Origin: a virus
Lineage: Duplodnaviria; Caudoviricetes
Virus record (IMG/VR): IMGVR_UViG_3300037087_000771
Coordinates: 1-54,439 of that record
Strand: one strand, 5' to 3'
Length of the DNA stretch: 54,439 nt
Shown: piece by piece, positions 42,768-50,826 of the stretch
Layout of the letters: every line of letters starts with the position of its first letter
How positions within the stretch are numbered: position 1 is the first letter of the stretch
Notes under the pieces: model-generated
The model's input: the letters and a program-made list of their open reading frames with translations, nothing else
The model's database searches: none
Told to the model about the DNA's origin: nothing
Translations under genes and position numbers: made by a program

Positions 42768-42863
42768 GGGCAATAAAAAAGGGGCACGTCGATGTGTCGG
42801 CACCGACATGCCCCTTGATTATTCTTGCCTTCCCGTCCGGGTGGCCACCCTTCAGGGAAACCC
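42768..42863 (-). promoter_or_regulatory. Structured cis-RNA plus intrinsic terminator, copy A
   Basis: TTCCC..GGGT-GGCC-ACCC..GGGAA hairpin, GCAAGAATAATCAAGG linker, branched stem AAGGGGCA/TGCCCCTT, U-tract. Confidence 0.7.
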
Positions 42864-45266: not shown

Positions 45267-45710
45267 TTAGCCGCCGTACTCCGCGGCGCGGTACGTCAGA
45301 ATCCCACGAATGGTCCCTGCTGCGGCTGTTCCCGCTGCCGTGGTGATGTGCATACCAAACAGGGTCTCCGTCTCGACGGGGGCCACCATCGGAAACAGCG
45401 TCGAACGGGCAACCCCGCCCGCCTGTGCCACGGTAGACGCGGAGATCATGATCTGATCAACCGCGTCCTCCGCCGCATTGATTCCGCCGCCATCCACGAC
45501 GATTGCAGGGCTACCGGAATCGAGGTCGTCCACAATCAGGGTGAAATCCAGGGGGATGCACCCAGCCGGGAGCGAGCACAGTGCGATGGTCTGCTCGTCC
45601 ACGTTCAGAGCGGCGGTGATTTCATACGAGCCGTCGCTCACCAGAACCTTGCCAGCCTCGTCCGGGTAAACCGCAGGACGGGCGCCTGCTACATTTGCCG
45701 ATTTCAACAT
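45267..45710 (-). CDS. Putative capsid decoration / minor capsid protein
   Basis: 147 aa, Ala/Gly/Thr-rich, directly after the MCP; SD AAGGAG. Confidence 0.65.
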   Translation of the reverse strand: MLKSANVAGARPAVYPDEAGKVLVSDGSYEITAALNVDEQTIALCSLPAGCIPLDFTLIVDDLDSGSPAIVVDGGGINAAEDAVDQIMISASTVAQAGGVARSTLFPMVAPVETETLFGMHITTAAGTAAAGTIRGILTYRAAEYGG

Positions 45711-45737
45711 AGTCGTGTCTCCTTTTCCTTCACTGAA

Positions 45738-45757
45738 GGGGGAGATCCGTCTCCCCC
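45738..45757 (-). other. Hairpin downstream of the MCP
   Basis: GGGGGAGA-CGGA-TCTCCCCC with a weak U-tract. Confidence 0.55.
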
Positions 45758-45780
45758 GTTGTCATTCCTGTGATCCCCTG

Positions 45781-46884
45781 TTACCCGACCGGCTGCTTGG
45801 CTGCCGTGTCGATTGCCATGATCCCGAAGTCCTTGGCGTTGAACTGCACCTTGGAGATTCCGAAGATCGAGTGCGTGCTGATTACGACCTGGTTTCCGCT
45901 GTCCCTCTCCTCTTCGTACCAGCCGAAGCGGAGACCGTTGCCCTTGGAGCCGAAGGCGATCACTGCCGCCTGGACGCCCATGAACAGAGCCCGCGCCGCC
46001 TCAACGGTCGCGGGGTTGCCGTAGTCGGCCATACGGATTACGGCCTGGTGCTCATGCAGGACCACGTTGTTATACATGCCGAGCCCGCCCTGGAAGATCG
46101 GGTTCTTGCGGCCCTCTGCCGCTGCCGCCGCCTTCTGTATGTCCAGCCAGCCAGAGCCGCCCGTGGTCTGCCGAAGGTCGTACACCTGCCACGGGTTCAT
46201 CAAGAGGACGAAGTGCTTCTCGCCGTTGATGAGGATCGGCTGGATCTTGGGGGTCCCCCCTGTTCCGCCTCCCATCATCGAGGCCATAGCCACAGCCTTG
46301 TCGATGAGCCCCAGGGTGATCGTGTCGCCCGCGGCAATGGTCGTCTTGATCTTCGTGCCCGGCATGAGCAAGTGCTCGGTGTCGGGGGCGTTGAAGGCGT
46401 TCCCTGCAAATCCCGCGTAACTGGTCGGGAAGATGTAGTCCGCATTGGACCCGCGGAGCCCGGACAGGTACATGAAGAAGAGCTCGTCGAATACCCGGCT
46501 CCACCATTCCGACTGCCGTACCCGTGCGATCTCGCGGAGCTGGTGTATCGTCCGCTTCTGGGTCATCCTGCCGCCCGTGTTCACCCCGCCGCGCATCTGA
46601 TTGATCAGGATGTCGTCGGAGTAGAACTTCAGGTCCTCTTCTTTCCCGGTCAAAGGGGTGTCCCCTTCCACAGGTTGCATTTTCAACTGCATGACAAGGT
46701 CGAAGGAAACCTTGTCTCCCGCCGTGCTTTCGAGGTCTTTCACGACCTGGATGGGCATGGAGCTGCCCTCAGCGCCCATGAACTTGCGTGAGAAATAGGA
46801 ATCCCGCGCCACGTCTACCGCAAGGAATGCCGAATACTTCTTGACGGCCTTGGGGTCGTTTACACCGATGATTGTCTGTCCCAT
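45781..46884 (-). CDS. Major capsid protein, N4-gp56 (DUF4043-like) family
   Basis: GVNDPKAVKKYS...GDKVSFDL...LTGKEEDL...QKRTIHQLR...NPIFQGGLGMYNNVVLHEH...DFGIMAIDT; SD AGGAGG. Confidence 0.92.
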   Translation of the reverse strand: MGQTIIGVNDPKAVKKYSAFLAVDVARDSYFSRKFMGAEGSSMPIQVVKDLESTAGDKVSFDLVMQLKMQPVEGDTPLTGKEEDLKFYSDDILINQMRGGVNTGGRMTQKRTIHQLREIARVRQSEWWSRVFDELFFMYLSGLRGSNADYIFPTSYAGFAGNAFNAPDTEHLLMPGTKIKTTIAAGDTITLGLIDKAVAMASMMGGGTGGTPKIQPILINGEKHFVLLMNPWQVYDLRQTTGGSGWLDIQKAAAAAEGRKNPIFQGGLGMYNNVVLHEHQAVIRMADYGNPATVEAARALFMGVQAAVIAFGSKGNGLRFGWYEEERDSGNQVVISTHSIFGISKVQFNAKDFGIMAIDTAAKQPVG

Positions 46885-47032
46885 TGCGTATCCTCCTAAA
46901 AGTGATAGAAAATGTTTTTGTGCTTCACCGTCTCTCCATTTCCCCCATCACTTCCCGGTCATCGGGCTGGCTATGTTTGAACCAGAACGTGGGACACTAC
47001 TCTTCTGTCTTCATGCCCCGTGGGGCGGGTAA

Positions 47033-47067
47033 CAAAAAAGCCAGCCAGGATTTCTCCCTGACTGGCC
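47033..47067 (-). terminator. Intrinsic terminator upstream of the MCP
   Basis: GGCCAGTCAGGGA-GAAA-TCCTGGCTGGC followed by TTTTTTG. Confidence 0.8.
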
Positions 47068-47106
47068 TTCGTAAGGCTCTATTGCTTATTGGCAGTCGAA
47101 CCGCTC
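47064..47106 (-). promoter_or_regulatory. Twin GA-GC(N3)-NCG-(N3)GC-C hairpins, candidate Com-like binding sites
   Basis: GAGCGGTTCGACTGCC (47106-47091) and GAGCCTTACGAAGGCC (47079-47064); the second overlaps the terminator 5' arm. Confidence 0.6.
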
Positions 47107-47279
47107 TAAGCTGCTTTAATCGCTATGGTTCCGAACTTCTCCCCGTCATACCGTAAAACGCCCAACATGTGCGTGAGAATCAGGTTCAAATAACCGCATT
47201 TCGGACACTTGATTTCAGCGTGAACGCTTTCAGCTTTCATCAGTAACCGGTTGCATTTCTTGCAGCGGATTTCGGTCAT
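47106..47279 (-). CDS. com: Mu Com-like zinc-ribbon regulator (57 aa; not in ORF track)
   Basis: My translation: MTEIRCKKCNRLLMKAESVHAEIKCPKCGYLNLILTHMLGVLRYDGEKFGTIAIKAA, with the EIRCxxCxRLL...EIKCPKC..LN signature. Confidence 0.85.
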   Translation of the reverse strand: MTEIRCKKCNRLLMKAESVHAEIKCPKCGYLNLILTHMLGVLRYDGEKFGTIAIKAA

Positions 47280-47291
47280 ATCCTCCCCCTT

Positions 47292-48350
47292 TTACGAGCG
47301 GGCTGCGTAGATAGCCCGCTCTGCATCACTCATCTTGGCGACTGCGTTCTCGTAGGCTTCCCCCGTGAGCTTATCAATCGCGTCATACTTGTCGTCTCCC
47401 TGATTCCCTTCCGATACCGGGACCTTGGCAAGCGTCTTGACCCCCGCGGCCCTCTCGGCCTCCGCCTTCTTCGCTGCTTCGATAGCCTTGCGCTTCTCCT
47501 CGGCGGCCTCAATAGCCTTGCGCTTCTCTTCGATGGACACGACATTGTCATCGTCCGCCTTGGGTGGTACTTCCGGGTGGAAAACCGCGTCGCATTCTTT
47601 CTTTGCGGCTGCGAAAATCTGTGCGTCGGTCATCTTCTTCGACTCGTCAGTGGCCAGGAGCCGGTTGACGGCGTCCACAAAGGCCACATTCTTGATCCGC
47701 TCTGCGGAATACTCAGGGTTGCTGCTGAAAAAATCGCCTTGGGCGTCCTTCCATCCCTTTTCGGCTGCCGCCTTCTGGACCTGGGCGTTGATCTTGTCGA
47801 ACATCTTCATCTCGGTAAGCGATTCGACGTATTCGGCGCGTTCCTTGTTGTATGCGGCCAGGGTGATGTCTCCATCCTCGAACTTCGTGTCGAGCGCCGA
47901 CATCTTGGCTTCGATTTCCTCCCTGGTTCCGTGCTTTTTCTCGGCCTCCAGGATGAAAACAGGTTCGTTTTTGGGTGCAATGACGGTCACTGCCGCGGCG
48001 GCCTCTTCCGCCTTCTGCGCTGCCTCCAGGTCTGCCGCCTCTTTGGCCGCCTGGACTGCCGCTGCCGCCTCTGCGTCTGCTGCCGCCTTGGCTTTGGCCT
48101 CTTCTTCGAGCTTCTCCGCTTCGAGCTTCTCTGCTTCCGCTTCCGCTGCCTCTGCCGTCTTCTCCTCCACCGTCTTCTTCTCGACCTTCCGCTTCGCTTC
48201 CCCTGCCCCCTCTTCCTTCGCCTTGGCGGCTTCGGCGGCCTCTTCTTCAGCCTTGATTTCCTCCGTGCTTTTGTTCTCCGTTTCCCCATCAAGGGCCTCT
48301 CGCTCTTCGGGGCTCAGCATCGCCAACTCGTCTTCCGTGATCTTTCCCAT
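47292..48350 (-). CDS. Putative capsid scaffolding protein
   Basis: Acidic Ala/Glu/Lys-rich helical protein between portal and MCP; start ATG 48350, SD GGAGG. Confidence 0.75.
   Translation of the reverse strand: MGKITEDELAMLSPEEREALDGETENKSTEEIKAEEEAAEAAKAKEEGAGEAKRKVEKKTVEEKTAEAAEAEAEKLEAEKLEEEAKAKAAADAEAAAAVQAAKEAADLEAAQKAEEAAAAVTVIAPKNEPVFILEAEKKHGTREEIEAKMSALDTKFEDGDITLAAYNKERAEYVESLTEMKMFDKINAQVQKAAAEKGWKDAQGDFFSSNPEYSAERIKNVAFVDAVNRLLATDESKKMTDAQIFAAAKKECDAVFHPEVPPKADDDNVVSIEEKRKAIEAAEEKRKAIEAAKKAEAERAAGVKTLAKVPVSEGNQGDDKYDAIDKLTGEAYENAVAKMSDAERAIYAARS
47473..47532 (-). repeat. 30-nt in-frame tandem duplication (EEKRKAIEAA x2)
   Basis: atagccttgcgcttctc at 47482 and 47512. Confidence 0.8.
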
Positions 48351-48378
48351 AATGTCCTCCCTCTCTCGGTTGAGTATC

Positions 48379-48478
48379 GGGCAACAAAAAAGGACGGAAG
48401 CGTGAGAGTGTGGTCCCACACGACCGTCCTTGTTTGTTCTTGCGTCCCCTTTCGGTATGCCTACCGTCCGGGGAACCC
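48379..48478 (-). promoter_or_regulatory. Structured cis-RNA plus intrinsic terminator, copy B
   Basis: TCCCC..CGGTA-GGCA-TACCG..GGGGA hairpin, GCAAGAACAAACAAGG linker, branched stem AAGGACGG/CCGTCCTT, U-tract. Confidence 0.7.
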
Positions 48479-48498
48479 TGATTTTTTAATTACTGCCC

Positions 48499-50826
48499 TT
48501 ACTTCTTATGGTTGTTGCTCTTCAGTCCCCTTTCGACTGACCCGTTCGGTTTGTCCTTCGCCTTAACCAACGTCTCGTCAATGTTCATCTTCCGATCCAT
48601 CATCGTTCGACCATGCTCACCCTGTTCGATGGTGTGCAATGTGCTGGCCTTTTCCATCCGGAGCTTTTCCTTGTCATAATCGACACCCGCGGCGCTCACC
48701 TGCTGGTTGACGGACTCGGTCTTGATCTTCGCGGCGATAAGCTGGGCTTCTTGTTCGAGCTTCTTGACCTTCGCCTGTTCGGCTGCGAGCTGCGTCTGAA
48801 GGATCTGGTTTTGTGTCTCTGCCACCTGCGTCGCTGCGTCTACCTTGGCCTGATCTGCCGCCTTATCTTCGGGAGTGGCCGCACCTTCAGTCCCCCGTTG
48901 GCCAGTGATTGCCCTGAACCGATCGACAAACTTCTCTTTGCCGGGTAAATCGGACAACTCGAACCATAGATCAATAACTTGTATTGCTGCTTCGGGCTGC
49001 AAGGTCTTGAGGATCTCGGTCATTGACTCGAACATGGCCTCGCGGATCGTCGCGGAGTAATCCTGCTCGGAAATGACGAAATCTGCCTGGCTTGCCGTGA
49101 TGTCACCGATGATCTCGTCCGTCTCCGGGTTGTATTTGTTGATCTCAAGGAACTCGGGCGTCTTGCCGTTCTCGCCCCCGGTGATCCGGATCTTTTTTTC
49201 CTCGGTGTAGAGCTGTTCGATCATCGATAGAATGATCTCGCCGGACAGCTTGAAGGCCAGCCGATTGTTATCGAAGAATGCCGTCGTTACAACACCGCCC
49301 TGCTCCTGCCGTGCCCTGATCGCCTTCCCCGACACTGCATTCGTGTCCCGGCCCATCAGCTCGTCCGTCACGCCTGACGCGCTCTGGATGTACTTCTCGT
49401 CCTGGGTCATCAGCATGACGTGCTCTTCAGCCATCTTGGTCTCGTTCTGGATCTCGACCCCGCGTTGACTCTTTGGGTTGACCTTGATCAAACCATCGGG
49501 CCTGTTTGCTTCCTGGACGATATCGTCCCAACTCTGGTCCGTATCTTTTATCGCGTCGTCATCAGCCACTACCCGGTTGGCTGACAACAGGTAGAGAGCC
49601 TTTGACCGGCGCTTGTTCAGGTCTTTCTGCGGGTCTCTGAGATTCCGGACGATGCCGTAGGGCGTCCCGTCCTTCTTCCGTTTGAAGCCCCAGATCGGCA
49701 CCAGACTGAAGCGTTTGTGCCGGTACGGGCTCTCCCCGTCCTGCAATACCGAGTCGCCGGTGAAAATTATCTGACGCATCTCCATCACGGTTGACTCGAC
49801 CGGCTGCCCGATTCCCAGCTCCACCAGTTTCTGATGCTTCCCCTCATCGAACGTGATCCCCTGAAGCGTTCCCAGTTCCTTGCCGCGCAACAGCTTCTTT
49901 CTTGCCGGGGTCCGATACTGACACTCGACCAGAAAGACACGATCCCGCGGCTCAACAGAGGTCTGGGTGCCGATGTACCCGAAAAACCCGGTGTACTGCG
50001 GCGTAAAGCCAGTACTGCTGTGCGGCATCCCGCCCGCCATCTTTGGATCGAAGGCAGGATCAAGCATTTCCGCAAAGGTCTCGTACCCGAACCCCTGATC
50101 CCCGCTGATAACAGAAGCATGGATAACGTCCGCCCTGTCCGGGAACATGGCACAGGCAACGTCTTCATCCACCCACTTGCCCCTGAAAACGTAACGGGCG
50201 TCGGAGAGGTCGTCCTCGACGGCCAGCGTGTCCCACCAGATGTATCGCCAATCCTCGTATGAGACGACAAGGGGCTCGTTGTCCGGGTCCGCGTTGATCC
50301 CGTGATCGATCCACCCTACCCCGGCCAGCACGGCATCGGCGAATGACTTCGACCGCTTGAATCCCGCGTTGTTCGCGTCGGAGACGTATTTGAAGAGCTT
50401 CGTCTTCATCTCCGCGCTCTTCGCGTCCTCTTCACCCCTGGGTAGAACGCGATAGTCAACCCGGATCTTCTTTTCAGTCCCGAGCACCCAATCGACCGTT
50501 GGCTTGACCTGGTTGAAGGTGATCGGCACCTGGGTCCGTTTGGCCAGGATCGCCTTCTCTTCCTGCGTCCACTGTCCCGGCCCGTCATAGAACTCATGGT
50601 CTACCATCGACTCACAGCGGAAATCAGCCTGCCGGACCCTTTCCTGGGCGAACCAGGACGACACCTTCGTGAAGCGCTTGCGGACATCCTCCCTGTCGAG
50701 CGGATGAACTCCTTTGGGAGGCTTTTCGAGCCCCAGATCATCCAGGTGTTCGTCAACGTCGAACTCGCGAGGGGTGTATTCCTCGATGCTCCTTACGTTC
50801 TCGGTTCTTTGAGTTCGCTCGCTCAT
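48499..50826 (-). CDS. Portal protein (P22/N4-like)
   Basis: 775 aa; FYDG..QW...ITFNQVKP.V..VLG.E...PYGIVRNLRDPQKDLNKRRSK...SGKAI.ARQEQG. Confidence 0.92.
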   Translation of the reverse strand: MSERTQRTENVRSIEEYTPREFDVDEHLDDLGLEKPPKGVHPLDREDVRKRFTKVSSWFAQERVRQADFRCESMVDHEFYDGPGQWTQEEKAILAKRTQVPITFNQVKPTVDWVLGTEKKIRVDYRVLPRGEEDAKSAEMKTKLFKYVSDANNAGFKRSKSFADAVLAGVGWIDHGINADPDNEPLVVSYEDWRYIWWDTLAVEDDLSDARYVFRGKWVDEDVACAMFPDRADVIHASVISGDQGFGYETFAEMLDPAFDPKMAGGMPHSSTGFTPQYTGFFGYIGTQTSVEPRDRVFLVECQYRTPARKKLLRGKELGTLQGITFDEGKHQKLVELGIGQPVESTVMEMRQIIFTGDSVLQDGESPYRHKRFSLVPIWGFKRKKDGTPYGIVRNLRDPQKDLNKRRSKALYLLSANRVVADDDAIKDTDQSWDDIVQEANRPDGLIKVNPKSQRGVEIQNETKMAEEHVMLMTQDEKYIQSASGVTDELMGRDTNAVSGKAIRARQEQGGVVTTAFFDNNRLAFKLSGEIILSMIEQLYTEEKKIRITGGENGKTPEFLEINKYNPETDEIIGDITASQADFVISEQDYSATIREAMFESMTEILKTLQPEAAIQVIDLWFELSDLPGKEKFVDRFRAITGQRGTEGAATPEDKAADQAKVDAATQVAETQNQILQTQLAAEQAKVKKLEQEAQLIAAKIKTESVNQQVSAAGVDYDKEKLRMEKASTLHTIEQGEHGRTMMDRKMNIDETLVKAKDKPNGSVERGLKSNNHKK

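Follow-up and report, generated by a model that had tools for sequence, protein, structure and literature searches.

A com-like gene, twin RNA hairpins and a terminator between the scaffold and capsid genes of a provirus: a candidate antitermination switch

Gene order and features of the locus

The unit described here lies in a provirus of the class Caudoviricetes (IMG/VR record IMGVR_UViG_3300037087_000771; completeness estimate 72%), which was analysed over its whole length of 54,439 bases (the window). Between a scaffold-like gene and the major capsid protein gene it carries a gene for a 57-residue Com-like protein, followed at once by two RNA hairpins and an intrinsic terminator. An original prediction, made from the letters of the DNA, had proposed that the protein binds the hairpins and thereby weakens the terminator. 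All long open reading frames (ORFs) of the window and every element of the com/hairpin/terminator site lie on the minus strand. The features are as follows.

48499–50826, minus strand: portal gene (PF16510).
47292–48350, minus strand: scaffold-like gene, upstream of com, assigned by its position between the portal and capsid genes.
46995–47290, minus strand: accessory cassette of about 290 nt, comprising a Shine–Dalgarno (SD) sequence, com, hairpin 1, linker, hairpin 2, terminator and a small 3′ hairpin.
47106–47279, minus strand: com-like gene for 57 amino acids, stop codon included (PF10122 profile).
47091–47106, minus strand: hairpin 1, GA-GCGGU-UCG-ACUGC-C, helix 47104–47100 with 47096–47092 (fold and covariation).
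47080–47090, minus strand: A-rich 11-nt linker AAUAAGCAAUA, consensus AAUAA..A (conserved alignment columns).
47064–47079, minus strand: hairpin 2, GA-GCCUU-ACG-AAGGC-C, helix 47077–47073 with 47069–47065, candidate antiterminator (fold and covariation).
47034–47070, minus strand: intrinsic terminator, core stem 47066–47040, loop GAGAAAU, U6 at 47039–47034; the extended stem from G47070 pairs into the U-tract.
47015–47026, minus strand: small hairpin GCCCCACGGGGC at the 3′ end of the cassette, present in the minimum-free-energy (MFE) structure of the 241-nt fold and inside the stretch missing from cassette-less relatives.
46885–46994, minus strand: capsid-gene leader, common to cassette-less relatives and 99% identical in two of them (L178 and L193; compared sequences carry L numbers).
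45781–46884, minus strand: major capsid protein gene, the first after the terminator (PF13252, E 5e-66).

The likely start of the scaffold-like gene is the ATG at 48350, the listed ORF extending to a GTG at 48419; its product has weak similarity to that of a gene at the equivalent position in phage Itty13. The com gene has a strong SD sequence (GGGGGAGGA, 47289–47281) that begins 3 nt past the scaffold stop codon, and only 12 nt separate this stop from the com ATG. Because the cassette is too tight to hold a promoter of its own, com is taken to be co-transcribed with the scaffold gene. A scan for sigma-70-like promoters found no site in 45500–48600, including the stretch from the terminator to the capsid gene; the sigma-70 consensus may not be that of the host. 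The gap between com and the capsid gene is 221 nt, and the capsid-gene SD sequence AGGAGGA lies outside the terminator stem. No mom-like gene adjoins the site, in agreement with the original prediction: the next gene encodes the major capsid protein.

The Com-like protein

The 57-residue protein (47279–47106, minus strand) carries the motif CKKC...CPKC that had drawn attention to it, and matches the Pfam profile Zn_ribbon_Com (PF10122) over residues 3–34 with E 1.1e-10 and 41.2 bits against a cut-off of 22.9. This was the sole family above its curated cut-off; the remaining matches, with few exceptions zinc-ribbon families, fell below theirs. By BLASTP, 18 of 29 positions are identical to Mu Com (62% over residues 1–28, E 2e-11). 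The cysteines C6, C9, C25 and C28 are invariant across 15 homologues, the C-terminal tails of which could not be aligned; a variable C-terminal tail is described for the Com family (PMC6240691, in the part available). A PDB sequence search with the protein returned eS27-type ribbons only and no Com entry, and the protein is not of the CAT-PRD type of RNA-binding family. Profile, similarity to Mu Com and size all agree, and on these sequence grounds the protein belongs to the Com family.

Twin hairpins and covariation

Two structurally equivalent hairpins had been predicted at the com stop codon. Both are there, and they share the form GAG-stem-UNCGA-stem-CC. The first G of hairpin 1 is the last base of the com UAG stop; in 11 of the 26 instances scored for this feature (see below) the com stop codon and hairpin 1 overlap or adjoin each other. 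The unpaired parts conserved across instances are the 5′ GA, the loop (U)NCG(A), the 3′ C and the AAUAA linker.

To test covariation, 25 distinct sequences were aligned with MAFFT without regard to structure and compared with 500 shuffles. Standard pairs filled 96.8% of the cells, compared with 75.3 ± 1.8 in the shuffles, none of which reached the observed value, and there were 54 double-change cells, compared with 18.2 ± 2.8. Compensatory changes were seen in seven of the ten pairs of the two stems (four of five in hairpin 1). When the 3′ partners were slid to other registers, pairing dropped to 32–62%; in a seed alignment of 13 sequences, 99.2% of the cells were paired. Twelve cells are G–U pairs, which fit RNA in the com sense only and become A–C mismatches on the opposite strand. 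Because of these cells and of the constancy of strand described below, the motif is read as RNA transcribed in the com sense.

The twin hairpins taken alone have a stability close to that of shuffled sequences (z-score −0.7). It is conservation and covariation beside com homologues, rather than thermodynamic stability, that mark them as non-random in the sequences compared. A strict hairpin pattern occurs twice in the whole 54 kb, both times at the com site, and the twin-hairpin covariance model has one match only in the window. A relaxed hairpin pattern is at chance level in the window (six matches, compared with 4.4 ± 2.2 in shuffles), and further Com sites in this phage are for that reason not claimed. 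A cmscan search of 46500–47600 against Rfam 15 (E ≤ 10) gave three weak, irrelevant matches, none of them on the element. A reading of the motif as an integron attC-like site was considered and dropped: the R-box-like core is absent and the motif is internal to the cassette.

The terminator and the bases that it shares with hairpin 2

The terminator core reads GCCAGUCAGGG-AGAAA-UCCUGGCUGGC (47066–47040) and lies 146 nt upstream of the capsid-gene ATG. Its energy is −20.3 kcal/mol when folded alone (z-score −3.8) and −18.0 kcal/mol in a scan of the minus strand. The 3′ bases of hairpin 2 are also the start of this strong terminator before the capsid gene, as originally predicted; the earlier description of the site was right on all points. 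In an 81-nt RNA spanning the site, the MFE structure is the extended terminator (GAAGGCC.../...GGCUUUU), which consumes the entire 3′ arm of hairpin 2. With hairpin 2 retained, the terminator of the window falls from −18.0 to −12.6 kcal/mol (a cost of 5.4) and 2 nt remain unpaired before the U-tract; in other instances the same constraint leaves 1–7 nt unpaired. Across instances the terminators range from −10 to −30 kcal/mol and the hairpins are weak. Since the hairpins are weak, the terminator is strong and the extended terminator is the MFE structure of the 81-nt RNA, termination would be the default state.

The sharing of bases was scored in 30 instances, leaving aside L067 (U-run in the loop), L077, L036 and L081; the terminators of L077 and L036 have UUUUC tails and are visible by eye, and L081 has no terminator. 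In all 30, the 3–5 nt that precede the U-tract find their partners in the 3′ end of hairpin 2. This pairing has a mean length of 3.83, compared with 2.09 ± 0.23 for shuffled partners (maximum 2.93 in 2000 shuffles), and in 29 of the 30 instances purines of the hairpin 2 arm can extend it into the U-tract. Two to four helix bases and the flanking C are common to hairpin 2 and the 5′ arm of the terminator in every one of the 30. The terminator stems are wholly different in sequence between instances, and the base of the stem abuts the U-tract in each of those scored. Selection thus appears to keep the same bases able to form either of two helices that exclude each other, a hallmark of a switch.

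Two further observations concern the terminator. Its loop is conserved despite the differing stems, being GAGAAAU in ten and AGAAAU in 14 of 31 instances (47050–47056 in the window); together with the first stem bases it reads GAG(N)4CC and may be a third Com contact. In L005, L006, L007, L013, L026 and L041 an extra hairpin follows the terminator, and in several of these loci it is itself followed by (C/A)UGCAAAUAAG. The counterpart in the window is the GCCCCACGGGGC hairpin with AUGAAGAC, which is part of the cassette.

Recurrence beside com homologues

Over 71 sources, a covariance model built from the twin hairpins (R1) matched 35 times at E ≤ 1, always on the com strand. All searches taken together gave 35 distinct instances of the motif in viral, metagenome and metagenome-assembled genome (MAG) contigs. 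A com-like frame ends upstream of the motif in 33 of them, 29 times at −1 to +18 nt, three times at 38–64 nt and once at 221 nt. One of the remaining two could not be evaluated, lying at a contig end, and in the other (L081) com lies downstream. Conservation of the hairpins beside com homologues, proposed at the outset as a check, is thereby borne out, with compensatory changes in the stems.

Searches that started from the protein and from the RNA converged on the same association. A search with the 57-residue ORF returned 13 viral loci, of which 12 were folded; in ten, twin hairpins and a terminator follow the com homologue. Among 48 distinct com proteins (L028–L090), 25 are accompanied by an R1 match at E ≤ 1 on the com strand. 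Conversely, a pattern search of viral sequences found 11 stretches: six in contigs already known, four new true motifs and one (L016) that was judged to be a chance match. Three of the four new motifs are accompanied by com-like ORFs with other N-termini and the fourth is cut by the end of its contig. In metagenomes, 14 of 80 pattern loci pass the model, and in all 14 a com-like ORF ends upstream; the other 66 have no model match, as expected by chance for 19 fixed bases. Among 80 capsid-gene relatives R1 matches exactly three loci, those that carry com. It gave no match in Mu (L027, com–mom region), Bcep22 or Itty13.

In deposited phage genomes, a tblastn search with Com returned 11 records, and a blastn search with the 87-nt element gave no match that covers the hairpins. 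Only the record of Burkholderia phage AP3 was inspected: this phage is P2-like and its com overlaps a DNA methyltransferase gene, the classical type. Two records of Shiga-toxin-converting phages among the tblastn matches are annotated as inserted Mu-like phage regions.

Several variants of the arrangement were noted. L004/L030 (about 2715–2840) have a structured insertion of about 125 nt between hairpins 1 and 2, with hairpin 2 and the terminator intact. In L037, L048, L059, L064, L071 and L089, com homologues that lack the twin motif, a single Com-type hairpin overlapping a terminator was seen by eye. In L035, L050 and L087 (Firmicutes prophages) a single Com-type hairpin overlaps an SD-containing stem in the manner of Mu, again by eye. 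In L069 (2588–2640) the twin elements have a different sequence, AGCGCCCCCAGCGGGCC, present in two near-identical copies, and Com is more divergent; this variant may be a pair of changed specificity.

The cassette and its slot

The stretch from 47290 to about 46995 is missing in four phages with closely related capsid genes (L178 and L179, 100% identical; L193, 99%; L180, 98%). In these the scaffold stop codon is joined to the capsid leader through 3–9 other bases. RNA-library contigs of relatives at 90–95% identity (runs X17 and X18) contain the corresponding joint, from 46994 to 47299. The cassette shows two traits of a moron, presence or absence between conserved flanks and a 3′ terminator, and has no promoter of its own; since there is no room for one, it is not an autonomous moron.

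The content of the slot was compared in the capsid-gene relatives, of which 80 were fetched and one (L192, without upstream DNA) was left out. Of the resulting 79, three carry com, 44 a CsrA-like gene and 32 nothing recognizable. Bcep22 and Itty13 are annotated with a CsrA-like regulator in the same scaffold/capsid slot. The CsrA-like gene encodes about 60 amino acids (L001, 6088–6182, minus strand; L002; 44 of the 79 within L178–L257), so that two unrelated small RNA-binding proteins alternate in this slot. In the intergenic region of Bcep22 past the CsrA-like gene, GGA was seen by eye in the loops of small hairpins, and no terminator was seen. A hairpin in the capsid-gene leader (CUGGUU...CCAG; window 46960–46994, minus strand) is kept from Bcep22 (L001) through L181, L182 and L186 to the phage of the window, whatever the slot upstream contains.

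In other phages the cassette occupies other slots: portal/scaffold, TerL/portal, portal/prohead protease and before a lysozyme-like (lysis) gene. In MAG contigs it stands beside FeoB, PepSY_TM and OprB-porin genes. A com-like gene with twin hairpins was found in such cellular contexts in L077, L078, L079, L081, L083 and L084, with a terminator in all except L081. The upstream neighbours include FeoB (L079 and L081) and PepSY_TM (L084), and the downstream neighbours an OprB-family porin (L077) and a DUF2325 protein (L079). The presence of a four-cysteine RNA-binding protein near iron-transport genes hints at metal-dependent control.

Two features elsewhere in the window may be recorded here. 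A covarying hairpin lies in the gap between the portal and scaffold genes (48386–48500, minus strand), together with an A-rich linker (GCAAGAACAAAC) and a strong U6 terminator. These elements are kept in position with different stems in L178, L179, L193 and L180 (about 1150–1330) and may form a second regulated terminator; the stem of the L180 terminator resembles that of a terminator at 42780 in the window. An ORF of 6,677 amino acids (1967–22000, minus strand) takes up more than one third of the window. Giant virion proteins are a known trait of Bcep22-like phages.

Comparison with known systems

One close comparison is with Com of phage Mu. The zinc ribbons are homologous, and in both systems the regulator is encoded just upstream of its site in the same operon. 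The Mu site, GA-AUGC-CUGCGA-GCAU-CC, directly abuts the inhibitory stem CCCAC-GGAGAAACAUU-GUGGG. With the hairpins of the window it has in common the GA, a stem of 4–5 bp, a loop ending in CGA, the closing stem, C(C) and an inhibitory stem directly next to it. In many instances of the type of L033, hairpin 2 is CCUACGAG, the Mu counterpart being CCUGCGAG, and the loops of the inhibitory hairpins are similar (GGAGAAAC in Mu and GAGAAAU in the window). The core GAG(N)2CC emerged from selection experiments (SELEX, systematic evolution of ligands by exponential enrichment) with Mu Com, in most cases in bipartite form; what Com binds is the loop form CC(N)2-3GAG, and the GA is protected, according to the available part of that report (PMC6483171). 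The two GAG..CC elements found here recall this bipartite motif. Mu differs in having one hairpin where the window has two. Its translation-inhibition stem (TIS) sequesters the SD sequence or start codon, whereas the stem in the window is a terminator with U6 that lies 146 nt before the ATG and sequesters neither. The target in Mu is a DNA-modification enzyme (mom), whereas the next gene here encodes a capsid protein.

In antitermination by BglG, SacY and LicT a ribonucleic antiterminator (RAT) hairpin overlaps a terminator. The window resembles this type in that a weak hairpin shares bases with the 5′ arm of the terminator, and a bound protein would choose between the folds. It differs in its protein, a 57-residue zinc ribbon rather than a CAT-PRD protein, and no sugar or phosphotransferase-system signal is involved. 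The gene of the regulator moreover lies in cis directly before the site, and the two move as one cassette. The CsrA-like proteins (Bcep22 gp54 and Itty13 gp22) are alike in slot, in size (about 60 amino acids) and in being RNA-binding post-transcriptional regulators. Their fold is unrelated, their RNA target is GGA, they have no homology to Com, and the intergenic region of Bcep22 is without a terminator.

Other com-like genes have been described before llpA bacteriocin, tailocin lysis and levansucrase genes, their general role being one that 'remains to be explored' (PMC6240691), and Com has been described with mom and DNA methyltransferases (PMC3299994). In the available parts of these two sources translational control is described or assumed, and no terminator-coupled RNA element is reported. 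Our literature searches, which left most subscription journals outside their reach, found no paper that ties Com to a terminator or describes the motif.

Proposed mechanism and alternative explanations

We consider that the unit, which stands between scaffold and capsid genes of the late (head) operon, is a Com-dependent antitermination switch, with a probability of about 0.6. Late transcription from upstream would produce a scaffold–com mRNA that ends at the terminator by default. Once Com had accumulated, it would bind hairpins 1 and 2 on the nascent RNA. Hairpin 2, locked in this way, would withhold GCC (and GAA) from the base of the terminator and leave at least two unpaired bases before the U-tract, and RNA polymerase would then read into the capsid gene and beyond. 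The logic would be that of Mu Com, in which the bound hairpin opens an adjoining inhibitory stem, except that the stem would be a terminator instead of one that sequesters the SD sequence and start codon. Hairpin 1, placed on the stop codon, would be melted by the terminating ribosome; as a speculation, it may add cooperativity, there being two sites as in the bipartite motif from SELEX, or couple the switch to the translation of com.

That Com binds the hairpins and weakens the terminator, the core of the original prediction, is the best-supported reading of the sequences because of the recurrence linked to com, the covariation of the terminator with hairpin 2 and the resemblance to the Mu site. 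Binding, read-through and a role in timing are what we infer from these. The positive feedback that was also proposed is not supported by the gene order: with com placed before the terminator, Com can be made without any read-through. For the same reason the switch would act as a feed-forward delay or threshold.

A number of points weigh against this proposal. A second strong, conserved terminator lies between the portal and scaffold genes (U-tract at 48391) without Com-type hairpins, and there is a third at 42780. Because there are other conserved terminators without such hairpins, late transcription presumably passes terminators through leakiness or a processive factor, and a dedicated Com antidote may not be needed. 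The conserved capsid leader (46885–46994) could hold a promoter that is invisible to a sigma-70 scan. The overlap in the window is at the small end of the range (two helix bases and the C, more if the U-tract pairs), and termination might be no more than weakened by the loss of 2–3 bp; a 9-bp terminator stands beside both hairpins in the 241-nt fold. The likeness to the Mu site was read by eye and the R1 model gives Mu no match; the loops differ, being UNCGA here and a CUGCGA hexaloop in Mu. The com gene ends 38–221 nt from the motif in four of the 35 instances, and in L081 it lies downstream of a motif that no terminator follows. No cultured phage carrying the cassette was found among deposited genomes by tblastn or blastn. 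The RNA data (four runs) are contigs, which cannot show 3′ ends or levels, and only the joint at the cassette was used. In these runs the bin 47024–47137 is without cover, a com contig ending at 47153 and a capsid-leader contig beginning at 46991, which is no evidence of termination.

The Com sites might instead serve the transcript of com itself, through protection of the terminated mRNA or feedback on com translation; the terminator would then just close the unit, its overlap with hairpin 2 being a matter of compaction. The position of hairpin 1 on or next to the com stop in 11 of 26 scored instances agrees with such a role, as does the tolerance of the operon for other terminators without Com sites. 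It would leave two facts unexplained: in all 30 instances the bases ahead of the U-tract follow the 3′ arm of hairpin 2 while the terminator stems are otherwise unrelated, and in Mu and other lineages Com-type hairpins stand before stems that sequester the SD sequence. The sites are also distant from the com start codon. We regard this as unlikely. Rather less likely is a moron-like insertion in an operon with phage-wide read-through, in which Com acts elsewhere, on RNA of the host or a distant RNA of the phage, and the hairpins are an unrelated element of the 3′ untranslated region (UTR), such as a small RNA (sRNA)/Hfq module. Its presence or absence between conserved flanks and the other terminators of the operon would suit this explanation, and an AAUAA linker followed by a terminator resembles the ends of 3′-UTR sRNAs. 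The 12 nt between the scaffold stop and the com ATG, though, leave no room for a promoter, the motif accompanies com even in cellular operons, and the model has a single match in the window. The GAG...CC flanks and CGA loops moreover match known Com recognition, as described in the available part of PMC6483171.

Com binding might, on the other hand, strengthen termination (attenuation), for example with hairpin 2 stacked on the terminator. The 241-nt fold, in which hairpin 2 and the 9-bp terminator lie side by side, would allow this. Against it, termination is already the thermodynamic default and the common bases force the two helices to compete; the characterized member of the family is an activator (PMC6483171, in the part available). 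We hold such an effect to be very improbable. Least credible is a function of the inverted repeats at the DNA level, for example in recombination or insertion or as an operator. The mobility of the unit between genomes and slots would be in keeping with it, whereas the stems covary while loops and flanks are conserved, the 12 G–U cells would be A–C mismatches on the other strand, and the motif stands constantly on the com-sense strand, inside the cassette and not at its ends.

Implications

Com has so far been a model of one system, the translational activation of Mu mom and of a few DNA methyltransferases. Many unrelated genes are preceded here and there by a com-like gene, the role of which has been called unexplored (PMC6240691, in the part available). 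A conserved cis-acting RNA partner would give com-like genes a concrete role, in which a 57-residue protein and an RNA of about 75 nt would decide between termination and read-through. This terminator-coupled way of working looks as though it has not been described for the Com family, judging from literature searches made mostly without subscription journals. Pairs of phages with and without the cassette and with identical capsid genes exist in nature and are a ready comparison.

A broader interpretation can be offered only tentatively, and we think it somewhat more likely to fail than to hold. In it, Com, one or more hairpins and an inhibitory stem form a widespread, portable lock-and-key riboregulatory cassette, of which the terminator form would be a new class of hairpin-binding antiterminator. 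The cassette would have been inserted repeatedly into various slots of late operons, replacing CsrA-like regulators, and recruited to FeoB, PepSY_TM and OprB operons. The four-cysteine metal site could make read-through in those cellular operons metal-responsive. Block and antidote come together in the cassette, which for that reason might also be maintained as a selfish element of 'regulatory addiction'.

The Com–RNA pair is already in use as a recruitment tag, and the unit described here would offer a very compact orthogonal part for synthetic gene control. If the proposed switch is real, a new protein family would join the few hairpin-binding antiterminators, and a single RNA-binding fold would be connected to inhibitory stems of either kind, translational or transcriptional. 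A small ORF that recurs in phage head modules would also be accounted for, and an RNA motif that is absent from Rfam would be defined.

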